DNA from: Pristiophorus japonicus
Taxonomy: Eukaryota
Assembly (NCBI RefSeq): GCF_044704955.1
Contig: NC_091984.1
Location: forward strand, 147,746,001 to 147,810,000
Direction: 5' to 3'
DNA length: 64,000 nt
Position 1 is the stretch's first letter, and each line of letters begins with the position of its first letter. The notes under the pieces were generated by a model. The model did not search any database, was not told the DNA's origin, and worked only from the letters and a program-made list of their open reading frames with translations. The translations under genes and the position numbers were made by a program. This document shows positions 1-55,729 of this stretch, in pieces.

Positions 1-707
1 GAGTGGGACTAATTGGGTAATTCTTTCAAAGAGCCGGCACAGGCACGATGGGCCGAATGGCCTCCTTCTGTGTTATAAGATTCTAGGCTGTGTGCGCGGT
101 TCACAGTTTTCTCCCGTGTCATTAACAAACGTACAGCTGTGACAACCTCCCTCTTTCACTTCCTCTGTGGGTGAAGTTTCATTCTTCTGATCTGACAATC
201 TCTTCAGTTATTTTTTGCACGGGGGATTTCTGCTGTGGTCTGAGTCTCTAATAATAACTGTCCAATAAGGCAGAATAACAGCAGCTCGGACCGGCTCGGA
301 CAGCGGACCCAGGCTCAGTGCTGACCCTGCAACGTCCTCCTCACCAACATCTGGGGACTTGTGTCAAAAGTGGGAGAGCTGCCCCACAGACTAGTCAAGC
401 ACCAGTTTGACATAGTCCTACTCACAGAATCATACCTTTCAGCCAATGTCCTACTGCACCCCCACCACTGACCTTCCTGCCTCCAAAATCCGTGAATCCT
501 GAAACAGGAACCCGTTTGAAGAACAGTTTGTATTGAAGTTCTGGGTGTGAAAGAGTCTTTGCTGAGAAAACAATCACGATCACGAGAGAAAAAGTTACTC
601 GGTAAAATAATGGAACTAAAGGTGGACAAGTACCCTGTACCTGATAGCCTGCATCCTAGGCTCTTAAATGAAGTGGCTGCAGAGATAGTGGATGCATTGG
701 TTGAAAT
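1..707 (+). repeat. Segmental duplicate of the cluster 5' flank (direct copy at about 55159-55865; 1-440 also inverted at about 9880-10304)
   Basis: Shared non-TE text such as cacagttttctcccgtgtcattaacaaacgtacagctgtgacaacctccctctttcacttcctct in all three places. Confidence 0.9.
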
Positions 708-8479: not shown

Positions 8480-9990
8480 GTCCTTGCCACATAAAAGGTT
8501 ACTGCCCAAGATAAGAGCTCACGGGGTTGTGGGTAATATATTAGCATGGATAGAGGATTGGCTAACTAACAGCAAACGGAGAGTCGGGATAAATGGGTCA
8601 TTTTCAGATCGGCAATCTGTAACTAGTGGGGTGCCGCAGGGATCAGTGCTGGGGCCTCAACTATTTACAACCTATATTAATGACTTGAATGAAGGGACCG
8701 AGTGTAATATAACCAAATTTGCTGATGTACAAAGATAGGTGAGAAAGCAAGTTGTGAGGAAGACACAAAGATTCTGCAAATGGATATAGACAGGCTGAGT
8801 AAGTGGACAAAGATTTGGCAGATGGAGTATAATGTTGGAAAATGTGAAGTTATCCACTTTGGTAGGAAAAATAAAAATTATTATTTAAATGGGGAGAGAT
8901 TACAAAATGCTGTGGTACAGTTCATTGATATCTTCCTGCAGTCTACAGCTTTCTTCTTCATTATCAACCATAGCCGAGTTTAGTATCATCTGCAAACTTA
9001 GTATCATCTGTAATCATTCTCCCTACATTCAAGTCTAAATCATTGATATATACCACAAAAAGCCAGGGACCCAGCACTGATCCCTGCCGAGCCCCACTGG
9101 AAACAGCCTGCCAGTCACAAAAACACCCATCAACCATTACCCTCTGCTTCCTGCCTCTGAACCAATTTTGGATCCAACTTGTCACTTTGTCCTGGATCCC
9201 ATGGGCTTTGTGACCAATCTGCTGTGTGGGACCTTCTCAAAAGCCTTGTTGAAATCCAAATACACTGCATCATATGCACTGCCCTCATCAACCCTCCTGG
9301 TTATCCCCTGAAAAAATTCAATCAAGTTATTCAGACACAACCTTCCCTTAACAAATCCATGCTGACTGTCCTTGATTAATCCGTGCTTTGTTAAATGAAG
9401 ATTCCTCCTATCCCGCCCCCGAGGTTAGGCTGACTGACCTGTAGTGACTCGATCTATCCCTTGCTCCCTTTTTAAACAAAGGTACCACGTTTGCAGTCCT
9501 CCAGGCCCCCGGTACCTGGGATTGCAATGTCAGCATCGCCCCTCTCGGCCAGCTCGGTCAGTAGTGGTGCTACCGAGACACTCTTGGTGATGGACAGTGA
9601 AGTCCCCCACCCAGAGTACATTCTGTGCCCTTGCTACTCTCAGTGCTTCTTCCAAGTGGTGTTCAACATGGAGGAGTACTGATTCATCAGCTGAGGGAGG
9701 GCGGGAGGTGGTAATCAGCAGGAGGTTTCATTGACCGTGTTTGACCTGATGCCATGAGACTTCATGGGGTCCGGAGTCAATGTTGAGGACTCCCAGGGCC
9801 ACTCCCTCCCGACTGTGTACCACTGAGCTGCCACCTCGGGTGATGGAGGAGTCTGGGACATTGGCTGAAAGGTATGATTCTGTGAGTAGGACTATGTCAG
9901 GCTGGTGCTTGACTAGTCTGTGGGGCAGCTCTCCCACTTTTGACACAAGTCCCCAGATGTTGGTGAGGAGGACGTTGCAAGGTTAGCACT
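8480..9990. mobile_element. Mosaic of CR1 RT fragments in both orientations plus a LINE endonuclease fragment (-)
   Basis: [14 protein letters not shown] on both strands; PDIVLLTESYL APE motif at 9728-9946. Confidence 0.8.
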
Positions 9991-10837
9991 GAGCCTGGGT
10001 CTGCTGTCCTAGCCGGTCCGAGCTGCTTTTATTCTGCCTGATTGGACGGTTATTATTAGAGACTCAGACCACAGCAGAAATCCCCCGTGCAAAAAATAAC
10101 TGAAGAGACTGTCAGATCGGAAGAATGAAACTTCACCCACAGAGGAAGTGAAAGAGGGAGGTTGTCACAGCTGTACGTTTGTTAATGACACGGGAGAAAA
10201 CTGTGAACCGTGCTAACAGCCTCGAATCTTACAGCACAGAAGGAGGCCATTCGGCCCATCATGCCTGTGCCGGCTCTTTGACAGAATTACCCAATTAGTC
10301 CCACCCCCCCTCTCTTTCCCCGTAACCCAGCAAATTGATCCTTTTCAAGTATATATCCAATTCCCTCTTGCAGACCTGGGCCCACAGCATTAGACTGCCC
10401 CTAACCTGGGCACAACATTGGCATCTCATTCATTCACTGGGGCAGGAAATGCCTGGTGTATGAAATGAAGTCCAGGGCTCTGAACATTCCCTCTCCTCTC
10501 CTCTCCTCTCATGCTGGGGTCCAGTTCCATGGGCCCCGACAGCACATTCTGACCTCACCTACTTCCTCATTCCACGTGTGTAAGCCTGGACCCTATCACC
10601 AGGATATCTGACTGCAGGAGGCCTCACCACTGTGTCCAGCACTGTCCTCACCCGAAATCCACACACAGTCTGCATTGATCTGGGGCCTTTAACGTGCCAA
10701 AGGTCACAAGACACTTCACATCGCTGCTGTAAGAACGTGGGGAGCGGGGGTTCGGGGGGCTTTAGGAAGGGTGATTGAAGGCCTGGGTGAAAGGATGGCG
10801 TTAGATGGAGGAGAGAGAGCTGGAGAGGGGGAGGGAT

Positions 10838-16897: not shown

Positions 16898-16941
16898 GGG
16901 AGAGGGAGTGGAACCGCGAAGGAGATGGAGGGAGAGAAGAA

Positions 16942-17038
16942 GAGGAAGTGTAAGTTGCTGACGTGGCTTTCTCTGGGTGAAGACATTTACATACTGAGGG
17001 ATGGGCAGTGAGACTCTCTCAGGCTGCAGGTTTATAAA
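16942..17038 (+). promoter_or_regulatory. Ig light-chain V promoter
   Basis: PU-box GAGGAAGTG 16942-16950, CRE-like TGACGT 16959-16964, octamer variant ATTTACAT 16985-16992, TATAAA 17033-17038 about 60 nt before the leader ATG. Confidence 0.8.
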
Positions 17039-17097: not shown

Positions 17098-17146
17098 ATG
17101 ATTTCACCCATCCAGCTGATCTGGCCTCTGGCATTCTGCGTCGCAG
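17098..17146 (+). CDS. IGKV: Ig kappa-type (type III/NS4-like) leader exon, MISPIQLIWPLAFCVA(G)
   Basis: accATG start, hydrophobic 16 codons + G, phase-1 donor G|gtac at 17147; splices in frame to the V exon. Confidence 0.93.
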
Positions 17147-17333
17147 GTACCAATCTCTCTCCTTCCACGTTTAATATCTCCCTGCTGTCGATTTCTGTCC
17201 AACTCTACTGACCAGTGATTGAAGGGAAAATGCTGACACTAGAGGAGAGCTCAGTGTCTCGAGCAATCTCTCATTTTACAGCGTCTTTCTGTGACAGTGC
17301 TTACTTCACTTTCTTTCTCTATTTCCCCCTCAG

Positions 17334-17638
17334 GTATCAGTGGGGACATCATCATGACCCAGTCTCCCCCGGTGCTGTCAGTGAGTGAGGGACAGACTGC
17401 AACCATCACCTGTACCGCCAGTGCATCCGTTAGCAATTATGTTGCTTGGTACCAGCAGAAAGCCGGGCAGAAACCCACTCTGCTGATCTATGCGGCAACA
17501 AATCGTTTCACTGGAACCCCCGATCGCTTCACCGGCAGTTACCAGTCCAACACGTTCACCCTGAGCATCAGCAACGTGCAGAGCGAGGATGTCGCAGACT
17601 ATTACTGTCAGCATGGGCAATACAGCAGCTCCGCTGGA
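17334..17638 (+). CDS. IGKV: Ig kappa-type V exon, germline and unrearranged ([16 protein letters not shown]...TITC...WYQQ...LLIY...[18 protein letters not shown])
   Basis: Polypyrimidine tract + cag acceptor ending 17333; both Cys, WYQQ and DYYC motifs present; no stops; followed directly by an RSS. Confidence 0.97.
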
Positions 17639-17666
17639 CACTGTGATACACAGCCGTACAAAAACC
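17639..17666 (+). other. V recombination signal sequence, 12-bp spacer
   Basis: CACTGTG + atacacagccgt (12 nt) + consensus nonamer ACAAAAACC; V-12/J-23 is the kappa arrangement. Confidence 0.96.
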
Positions 17667-19118: not shown

Positions 19119-19157
19119 GGATATTGTACAGCCGCTGCACTGGAAGCTGTCACTGTG
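19119..19157 (-). other. J recombination signal sequence, 23-bp spacer
   Basis: GGATATTGT (2 mismatches to GGTTTTTGT) + 23 nt (19128-19150) + consensus CACTGTG 19151-19157. Confidence 0.92.
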
Positions 19158-19192
19158 GCTCACGTTCGGTAAAGGAACCAAGCTCAGACTGA
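19158..19192 (+). CDS. IGKJ: Ig kappa-type J segment (LTFGKGTKLRL)
   Basis: FGxG motif directly after the RSS; phase-1 donor A|gtaagt at 19193. Confidence 0.96.
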
Positions 19193-19289
19193 GTAAGTAA
19201 ACCCCAATGCTCCGTTATTAACACTTTAAATACTGAATCTTTCTAAGACACAAATGCTGAATATGCGAAGGTGTTTGTTTACATATGAT

Positions 19290-30313: not shown

Positions 30314-30642
30314 GCCGAGGGAAGACACCACCCACGCTGACCCTGCTGCCCCCCTCCCCGGAGGAGGTCACGACCAAGGGCACTGCCACCCTGGTGTGCC
30401 TCGCCGATCACTTCTACCCCGATGCGGTGGAGGTGGAGTGGAAGAAGGACGGAGCGACCATTTCGGCCGGGGTCCAGACCAGCGACTACCTGCGAGCTTC
30501 GGACAACACCTACAGTGTCAGCAGCCTGCTGACCCTCTCTGGCTCCGACTGGGAGTCCAACGCCAGCTTCTCCTGCAGCCTCACCCACGAGAGCCTCTCC
30601 TCTCCCCTCAGCAAGGGGGTCAGGAGAGCAGAATGTGCGTAG
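30314..30642 (+). CDS. IGKC: Ig kappa-type constant exon ((S)RGKTPPTLTLLPPSPEEVTTKGTATLVCLADHFYP...YSVSSLLTLSGSDWESNASFSCSLTHESLSSPLSKGVRRAECA*)
   Basis: Acceptor tcccttt-cag ending 30313; phase 1 matches J; C1-set motifs ATLVC, FYP, W, YSVSS, FSC; penultimate inter-chain Cys; TAG 30640-30642. Confidence 0.97.
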
Positions 30643-31234: not shown

Positions 31235-31240
31235 AATAAA
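31235..31240 (+). terminator. Probable poly(A) signal of the light-chain mRNA
   Basis: AATAAA about 600 nt after the stop, followed by GT-rich gtctgtgtctgg. Confidence 0.7.
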
Positions 31241-31944
31241 CATGAAGAATATTCAGTCTGTGTCTGGCGAGTGCTTTGGAAATGTCCCACCTCCCCCTCA
31301 GCTGGATTGGCTGCATTTCAGTAAGTGTCTGTCCTGATTGGCTAGGTGGGCTGTCAATCAATGGCACGTCAGCAGGAGATTTGTTTTAAAGCCAATTATC
31401 AATCATTTTAAAACGATCAATTTGACCTCGAACCCCTGGAGTGCACAAGATTAAACACAGAGACACTAAAAGCTGCTGGGATTAAACCCTCCCAGTCTGA
31501 GCATTGGCTCTCACTCTGCACACTGGGGGTGTTGGGGCAGCCCCGATCGTGGGATCGCACTGTGCACTTGTGCTGACTGCTGGGAGCAATCTGGGGGCAG
31601 GAGGCCAAGGTCACAACGTTGCATTCTCTCTCCTTAACGTGTGGCTTGTGGCAGCAGCACAAAACTGTACCGAGTGAGGCCTCAGCTTCGGGAGAGGAGC
31701 AGTCAGTGTATCACTGTGTACATGTCCCTGAATGTTAGTGTGTCTTACCCAGCACCGCATGTCGGTGTGTGTGTGTGAGTGTTACCCAGCACTGTTATGT
31801 CGGCCTGAGGAGTGCTCCGCGGTGATGCGCTCTTTAAGGGACTGTGGGGGAGGAGGGGAGTGGAGGGGTGACCTGGGCGGATGATCAGGGGCTGACCTTG
31901 TGTGGAATGGTGGGGACCAGGGCGATCGCAGGGGTGTTCTCAGG

Positions 31945-55150: not shown

Positions 55151-55729
55151 GTGAGGAGGAGTGGGACTAAATGGGTAATTCTTTCAAAGAGCCGGCACAG
55201 GCACGATGGGCCGAATGGCCTCTTTCTGTGTTGTAAGATTCTCGGCTGTGAACGCGGTTCACAGTTTTCTCCCGTGTCATTAACAAACGTACAGCTGTGA
55301 CAACCTCCCTCTTTCACTTCCTCTGTGGGTGAAGTTTCATTCTTCTGATCTGACAATCTCTTCAGTTATTTTTTGCACGGGAGATTTCTGCTGTGGTCTG
55401 TGTCTCTAATAATAACCGTCCAATCAGGCAGAATAACAGCAGCTCGGACCGGCTCGGACAGCGGACCCAGGCTCAGTGCTGACCCTGCAACGTCCTCCTC
55501 ACCAACATCTGGGGACTTGTGCCAAAAGTGGGAGAGCTTCCCCACAGACTAGTCAAGCACCAGCCTGACATAGTCCTACTCACAGAATCAGATCTTTCAG
55601 CCAATGTCCCACAGCCCACCCCTCACACCGCACCCCCCCACCTCCCGAATCCCGTGAAAAATAAACAGGAACCCTTTTGAAGAGGAGTCTGTTCTGAGAT
55701 TCTGGGTGTGAGGTATTCTGTGCTGAGAA

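Follow-up and report, generated by a model that had tools for sequence, protein, structure and literature searches.

A candidate B-cell enhancer block 5′ of V in the split light-chain clusters of Pristiophorus japonicus

Shark kappa light-chain genes (NS4, type III) are described, in the parts of PMC5192425 and PMC2193156 that were available, as many split V-J-C clusters with a few germline-joined genes. A locus built in this way raises the question of how a B cell turns on one or a few among dozens of near-identical mini-loci. An initial annotation of one such cluster in Pristiophorus japonicus placed a candidate B-cell enhancer upstream of V, recognised by an Ets-IRF composite element, and supposed that each mini-locus carries its own copy 5′ of V rather than 3′ of C. 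We compared this block with its copies across the genome, with its counterparts in other organisms and with known immunoglobulin enhancers.

The block and its cluster in the window

The stretch of DNA that we analysed (64,000 nucleotides, hereafter the window) is C8:147746001-147810000 and holds one complete light-chain cluster, with leader, V, J and C all in open frame. Its features are given below, where numbers of copies refer to the 100 matches listed for the block in this genome:

97 to 317, minus strand: second block copy, 6 kb 5′ of a C exon without V or J, this C exon lying just left of the window
9856 to 9989, minus strand: high-copy repeat fragment on the 5′ side of the block, from contig depth
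9990 to 10214, plus strand: candidate enhancer block, kappa-locus-specific, non-repeat, 225 bp; best-kept portion approximately 10021-10175
10038 to 10045, minus strand: CCAAT box (CTGATTGG); CCAAT core 10041-10045 kept in 98/100 listed copies
10050 to 10059, minus strand: perfect MEF2 consensus site, identical in 99/100 listed copies
10068 to 10073, plus strand: RUNX-type site ACCACA, 97/100 listed copies
10076 to 10086, plus strand: kB-like site AGAAATCCCC, one base off the consensus used
10090 to 10099, minus strand: loose MEF2-like site directly after the kB-like site; weak, varies among copies
10141 to 10154, plus strand: Ets-IRF composite element AGAGGAAGTGAAA (10141-10153), GT-GAAA-G variant, also fits BLIMP1
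10168 to 10173, no strand: E-box CAGCTG, 24 bp 3′ of the start of the Ets core; 97/100 listed copies
10215 to 10317, plus strand: high-copy repeat tail on the 3′ side of the block, from contig depth
16930 to 17097, plus strand: V promoter; holds an Ets site at 16941, TGACGTGG at 16959, a variant octamer at 16985-16992 and a TATA-like box
17098 to 17666, plus strand: leader exon (ATG 17098), intron, V exon and 12-spacer RSS (17639); open frame, Pfam V-set
19119 to 19197, plus strand: 23-spacer RSS and J (near 19156) with FGXG motif
30314 to 30642, plus strand: C exon; open frame, Pfam C1-set
55255 to 55475, minus strand: third block copy; belongs to a relic with pieces of the upstream DNA and of the J-C intron and without promoter, V, J and C

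Most of the many V-J-C clusters in the locus are split, V carries a 12-spacer RSS and a few genes are germline-joined, features that fit shark kappa (NS4). We take the isotype name from these features, and neither a V-versus-C protein comparison nor a PDB search settled it. Two germline-joined V-J genes, at C8:148180049 (one of a family of six by position) and C8:146963971, are both out of frame. Of 43 V-bearing units, 39 keep the strong Ets site of the V promoter, 28 keep TGACGTGG and 42 keep the octamer, which is a variant in place of the canonical form. In almost every cluster read, the nonamer of the J-side 23-spacer RSS (19119-19157) departs from the canonical form and reads GGATATTGT. 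Beyond the poly(A) signal of the cluster, 31240-31900 is cluster-specific unique DNA containing an E-box, three CCAAT boxes and a CRE-like site and no Ets-IRF element, and it is 92-97% kept in the other clusters read.

All five motifs of the initial annotation were re-located in the letters at the coordinates given for them, and a motif scan found the MEF2 site at 10050-10059 in addition, for which no difference is listed in three other organisms. The block was said to lie 7 kb upstream of V, in agreement with the 6.9 kb that separate it from the leader ATG. GGAAnnGAAA (10144-10153) is intact in 86 of the 100 listed copies and its Ets core is broken in the other 14. The most variable motif is the kB-like site (identical in 83/100 listed copies), whose core letters and strand relative to the Ets-IRF element are those of the human Ig-lambda enhancer; the loose MEF2-like site at 10090-10099 occupies the place of that enhancer's MEF2 site. 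Another Ets/IRF-like string (10118-10131) immediately precedes the composite element on its 5′ side and is nearly invariant among copies, with position 10130 altered in three other organisms.

The strict composite element occurred in 0.26% of 20,000 dinucleotide shuffles of the block, and its combination with E-box and RUNX site in 0.01% of shuffles and in 0/2030 background tiles of 225 bp, figures which overstate significance because the motifs were picked after the sequence had been seen. The composite element and MEF2 site jointly were found in 0/2030 tiles.

We used the contigs of four other organisms to establish the repeat status of the block, not its copy number. Depth on these contigs was 1e5 to 1e7 on both flanks (9900-9989 and 10215-10320) and at most 76 on the block, and the unique block is therefore 9990-10214; for this interval the description as non-transposon DNA holds. 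We presume the 5′ repeat fragment (9856-9989) to be LINE-like and the 3′ tail (10215-10317) to be SINE-like. A 40-aa frame of the 5′ repeat had no Pfam match, and the block had no match in Rfam. A search of sequencing runs listed no RNA data set containing the block, a result that speaks neither for nor against any reading. The contigs of two other organisms continue from the block into the 3′ tail, and in organisms B and E homology ends at 9990, with only 9-11 letters beyond it, too few to judge the 5′ repeat there.

The composite element, E-box and RUNX site are unchanged in all three copies in the window, as had been reported, with CTGATTGG altered in the copy at 134-239 and the kB-like site in the copy at 55292-55397. 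It should be noted that three near-identical young copies are by themselves no evidence of constraint. The 134-239 copy proved not to belong to a complete cluster, its C exon having lost V and J. This arrangement recurs, in that 18 clusters (including window 1-451) keep a block and a C exon 6-9 kb apart, with promoter, V and J gone. In three mapped V-J-less clusters, as in the relic, the match to the J-C intron resumes near 26.5-26.9 kb, which suggests a common old deletion.

Distribution and position of the copies

Rather than the three paralogues first counted, the 5.9-Gb genome contains 105 to 111 copies of the block. An exact 23-mer had 78 matches, a 35-mer over the composite element had 105 (at most 3 mismatches) and a second 35-mer, chosen independently from the 5′ end of the block, had 111; copy positions and motif counts in this report are those of the 100 matches listed of the 105 and of the 111. 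All but 2 (of 100) and 1 (of 100) of the matches listed fall in C8:143.5-148.8 Mb or in small unplaced contigs; five unplaced contigs carry listed copies, three of them with the same C exon. Dispersed copies, which would have marked the block as an ordinary repeat, were absent, and the matches listed lie near-exclusively in the kappa region. The block is real and locus-specific, and it is probably functional.

Outside the main region, one copy at C8:159.5 Mb adjoins J and C. It belongs to an outlying cluster (C8:159520254-159564900, 11 Mb from the main locus) in which an intact V is inverted 36 kb from an intact J and C and an Ets-broken block lies between V and J/C; this cluster could rearrange by inversion. 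A lone copy with 92% identity (C8:114855529), at a distance of 29 Mb from the locus, lacks the 5′ repeat flank, its CCAAT, RUNX and Ets sites are altered, and there is no Ig exon in the 30 kb read around it.

The MEF2-kB pattern had 355 matches genome-wide against 1047 in the control and was too loose, and the kB-to-composite pattern at other spacings had 23 against 15. The latter pattern led to an eight-copy segmental family at C19:45.2-51.9 Mb, in which a kB-like core is combined with C/EBP-like sites and a string that loosely matches the Ets-IRF element. This family is unrelated to the block, and the 3 kb read for three of its eight copies showed no Ig feature.

A block lies within 11 kb upstream of 53 of the 66 V genes (48 in the same orientation and 5 more inverted) and within 20 kb downstream of none (0/66), where random placement would give 16% at 11 kb and 26% at 20 kb; these block-V distances rest on the 100 matches listed per 35-mer, the second 35-mer having added six same-orientation blocks. 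Six V genes with an inverted block at 16 kb also have a same-orientation block at 5.3 kb; in the one of these six 5.3-kb blocks that was read, the spacer of the composite element is changed and both half-sites are left. Five clusters have an inverted block, and the two examined both have intact V, RSS, J and C. For the C exons, a block was found less than 35 kb upstream in 82 of 93 cases and within 10 kb downstream in none (0/93). No conserved composite element was found in the J-C and 3′ stretches examined, with a loose match in 3/49 C regions (29 of them short or partial), and none occurs in the window from J to 41.7 kb. As far as the block itself is concerned, the supposition that each mini-locus has its own element, 5′ of V and not 3′ of C, holds approximately, with about one block per cluster, lying 5′ of V, and none close on the 3′ side; an enhancer of another kind may still lie 3′ of C.

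The 13 V genes (of 66) without a block within 20 kb are of interest as the exceptions. Ten were read, and none is an intact same-orientation V-J unit with an intact C; 4 of the 10 pass as V genes. One block-less V has an adjacent split J (FDKG) and a C with a stop, and one is a germline-joined V-J out of frame. This is weak support for a role of the block, because truncated duplicates would lose block and J together.

In the 10 kb around each of the 100 listed copies we found a same-orientation V within 9.3 kb for 43, a C exon only for 18 and neither for 39. In these 43 units, 2.9-8.9 kb separate the block from V, and natural distances overall span 2.9-10.3 kb. Most tiles between 13.5 and 16.9 kb are kept in only 7-25 of the 43 units, whereas the block's own retention (43/43) is given by construction, because the units were chosen by having a block. 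Many blocks stand head-to-head, 10-22 kb apart, and many V-less copies face the block of another cluster in this way; copies that look orphaned may therefore be shared rather than dead. This qualifies the earlier description of an exon-less relic keeping an orphan copy: the 55292 copy does lie in a relic without promoter, V, J and C, but it may be shared.

Constraint and natural Ets-core mutants

We compared rates of change within the genome on a tree of 92 copies, leaving out 8 of the 100 (the outlier of 92% identity and 7 copies whose 3′ flank is truncated); copies had been found via a region that includes the composite element, which gives a slight bias toward its conservation. Non-CpG changes per site were fewer in the block than in the repeat flanks (0.55 vs 0.82, p = 0.001), and about equal in the motifs of the initial annotation and the rest of the block (0.49 vs 0.56, p = 0.33). 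Among the 32 clusters with intact V and C, those motifs had 0.13 changes per site vs 0.23 elsewhere in the block (p = 0.16), and 0.10 vs 0.24 (p = 0.04) with the MEF2 site included; in the other 60 copies, MEF2 included, the values were 0.33 vs 0.40 (p = 0.27). The composite element is kept to a similar degree in copies with and without a linked V. Diversity (pi) in the 43 V-bearing units was 0.049 in the post-RSS spacer, 0.035 in the promoter, 0.025 in the 5′ repeat flank, 0.024 in the block, 0.022 in the leader-V intron and 0.016 in the core of the block, the bounds of which were set after the fact.

In organisms B, E and F one contig each covers the block, with 14/173, 21/243 and 17/215 letters different (approximately 92% identity), and no contig joins block and V. 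Between 10016 and 10186, E and F show 13 differences, all of them outside the 43 bases (of 171) of the motifs first annotated (P = 0.02, or P = 0.006 when MEF2 is added after the fact), a result which amounts to about one comparison since most differences are common to all three organisms; two listed differences, private to the window's copy or to B, were dropped from the test. In B, differences that lie less than some 30 bases from the end of the contig may have escaped the count, so an intact composite element is certain only in E and F. For organism D only a 22-letter piece over 10141-10162 was found, with neither block nor V unit at 80%, and it is uninformative. As a control, the promoter-leader-intron-V unit had 30/536 differences in B, 66/731 in E and 64/773 in F; within it, in B, the leader-V intron had at least 10/187, and the post-RSS spacer had 40/223. 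No contig of E or F covered this spacer, a gap that carries no weight as evidence. Between species, then, conservation of the block equals that of the V unit and does not exceed that of the leader-V intron, while the spacer changes at about twice the rate of the block. The two lines of evidence differ on whether the annotated motifs are better kept than their neighbours: over all copies they are not, which goes part of the way toward one of the refuting conditions named in the initial annotation, and across species the differences avoid them.

These values bear directly on a reading in which the block is neutral unique DNA that was copied with its cluster and kept alike by recent duplication or gene conversion, its motif set being due to chance. 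The copies differ by only 2-5%, the block is no less diverse than the repeat flank and the leader-V intron, its divergence between species equals that of the V unit, the annotated motifs are not distinguished over 92 copies, and 57/100 listed copies have no same-orientation V within 9.3 kb and yet keep the block. Neutrality fits less well with the absence of composite element plus MEF2 site from the background tiles, the retention of the block while the DNA between block and V turns over, the avoidance of motifs by the differences in other organisms, a rate in the post-RSS spacer of organism B that is twice that of the block, and motif constraint which appears in intact clusters and not in the rest. 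We therefore regard neutrality as unlikely, while giving it some weight.

Natural mutants offer a further view of the composite element. The Ets core of the 100 listed copies carries one common change in 13 and a different change in one outlier, and the common change has two origins on the tree; in the portion of PMC13307996 available, a GGAA-to-GAAA change is reported to abolish PU.1 cooperation. The 12 Ets-broken V-bearing clusters fall into three sets of 4: in one V is broken, in another C is frameshifted, and in the third V and C are open and J has FSKG, which we count, as an interpretation, as a defect. By comparison, V and C are intact in 28 of the 29 Ets-intact clusters scored, whose J has FGKG in 22, FSKG in 1 and was not seen whole in 6; two Ets-intact V-bearing units without a paired C (one of them without RSS) and eight rows without a V call are not among the 29. 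The association of Ets loss with a broken cluster gives a Fisher p of 4e-5, which is inflated because there were only two origins. TGACGTGG in the promoter is kept in 1/12 of the Ets-broken family vs 27/31 of the others. Both independent losses of the Ets core thus fall in decaying clusters. However, each of the 12 Ets-broken clusters is backed by an intact block in inverted orientation, 13-22 kb beyond its own on the upstream side, and the loss could also reflect redundancy. One partner of this kind is the window's 55292 copy, standing head-to-head 19.4 kb from the block of the next cluster, whose Ets core is broken. The Ets-broken subfamily (e.g. C8:147820766) has a V with a distinct CDR1 and a J with FSKG, with an insertion in V in three copies and a 28-bp deletion in C in three.

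Proposed function and relation to known enhancers

We consider the block to be, with somewhat better than even confidence, a B-cell enhancer present once per shark kappa V-J-C cluster, 3-10 kb 5′ of V, a proposal built on the letters and their copies. The predicted binding factors are PU.1 or Spi-B together with IRF4/8 for the site at 10144-10153, MEF2 for that at 10050 and an E-protein for that at 10168; the site at 10076 may bind NF-kB. The bound factors would open the site, and the block would loop to the V promoter, with its own Ets site, TGACGTGG and variant octamer, and would drive transcription and V-J accessibility of its own cluster. It may also target hypermutation, as the lambda enhancer does. 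The GT-GAAA-G form is one preferred by BLIMP1, going by the text available of PMC13307996, so BLIMP1 may compete for the site in plasma cells.

The block may alternatively be regulatory without being mainly an enhancer of its own V, acting instead in hypermutation targeting, as a locus-wide shared element or as a BLIMP1-bound silencer, which we judge improbable. Such roles would suit the report, in the accessible part of PMC3972084, that enhancers of the lambda type, placed upstream or downstream and facing either way, direct hypermutation while hardly affecting transcription, and they would suit the BLIMP1-preferred variant, in which the common change removes the Ets half and keeps the BLIMP1/IRF half, as well as the many head-to-head blocks. 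They accord poorly with one block per cluster, close to V in 53/66, and with the loss of the Ets core alongside promoter and exon decay.

It is very improbable that the block is the promoter of an upstream sterile or non-coding transcript. Its well-kept CCAAT core does lie 5 bp from an AT-rich run, but this run is the perfect MEF2 site and is too near the CCAAT box for a TATA box, intact clusters are served by inverted copies, and the Rfam search gave no match. Least credible of all are the readings of the block as a piece of some dispersed transposon or as a cryptic RSS deleting V-J in the manner of the kappa-deleting element: two repeat fragments enclose it and it contains a heptamer-like string at 10070, a 12-bp spacer and a nonamer-like string at 10089, but there are no dispersed copies and no high depth in other organisms, and 4/4 mapped V-J-less units keep homology up to 10317, so that their breakpoints are not at the signal-like string.

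Returning to the enhancer reading, we compared the block by eye alone with known light-chain enhancers. The initial annotation drew a parallel between GGAAnnGAAA and the Ig kappa 3′ and lambda enhancers; the lambda enhancer is indeed the closest, and the kappa 3′ enhancer is less alike. The tetrapod Ig-lambda enhancer (human, mouse E-lambda 2-4/3-1 and chicken), like the block, holds a kB-like site and MEF2, PU.1-IRF4 and E-box sites in about 130 bp. The kB core letters of the block are those of the human enhancer, and the 10-letter core of the composite element is that of mouse E-lambda 2-4, on the same strand. The kB-to-Ets spacing is 67 bp in the block vs 74 in human lambda (a count by eye from the part of PMC3972084 available), and in both the E-box lies 3′ of the composite element, at 24 bp in the block vs approximately 50 in lambda. 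The same source, as far as available, gives the lambda order as E-box, kB, MEF2, PU.1-IRF4 and second E-box, and describes the sites as required for hypermutation targeting in either orientation (DIVAC). Unlike lambda, the block has no E-box 5′ of kB, and its perfect MEF2 site is 5′ of kB with only the loose one 3′, so that the lambda order of sites is not reproduced. It also has extra CCAAT and RUNX sites, and it serves a kappa-type gene from 5′ of V, once per cluster, with no copy within 10 kb 3′ of a C exon (0/93). We infer by analogy that the block may work like the lambda enhancer family.

The Ig-kappa 3′ enhancer/Ed shares with the block a PU.1-IRF composite element, a 3′ E-box, a 5′ kB-type site and the isotype, going by the accessible text of PMC3972084 and PMC13639285. 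It differs in lying 3′ of a single C-kappa, and no MEF2 site is marked for kappa 3′ in Fig. S5 of PMC3972084, within the part available. The mouse V-region enhancers (E88, E34, kappa-RE1 and E-lambda 2-4) are found among or 5′ of V genes, E-lambda 2-4 sitting between C-lambda4 and V-lambda1 (PMC9263370 and PMC13639285, in the portions available), and the 5′ position of the block therefore has a precedent. From the same partial sources, however, the mouse elements number a few per megabase translocon and make long-range contacts, whereas the shark block occurs once per V-J-C mini-locus. For sharks, the accessible text of PMC2435157 proposes rare or limiting formation of promoter-enhancer complexes in Ig mini-loci and names no element, and a mapped shark Ig enhancer was not found in the literature searched, a set that takes in only a minority of subscription papers.

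A more far-reaching suggestion, which we offer as tentative and rather doubtful, is that the block and the tetrapod Ig-lambda enhancer descend from a common ancestral light-chain enhancer, that each block governs activation as well as hypermutation in its own cluster, and that the Ets mutants were silenced by enhancer loss before their exons decayed. The approximately 100 natural copies of the 225-bp block, some mutated in the Ets core, some inverted and some without a V, make it testable how a B cell activates one or a few mini-loci. If the enhancer reading is true, the grammar of PU.1-IRF4, MEF2 and E-box sites in light-chain enhancers would date to the base of the jawed vertebrates.
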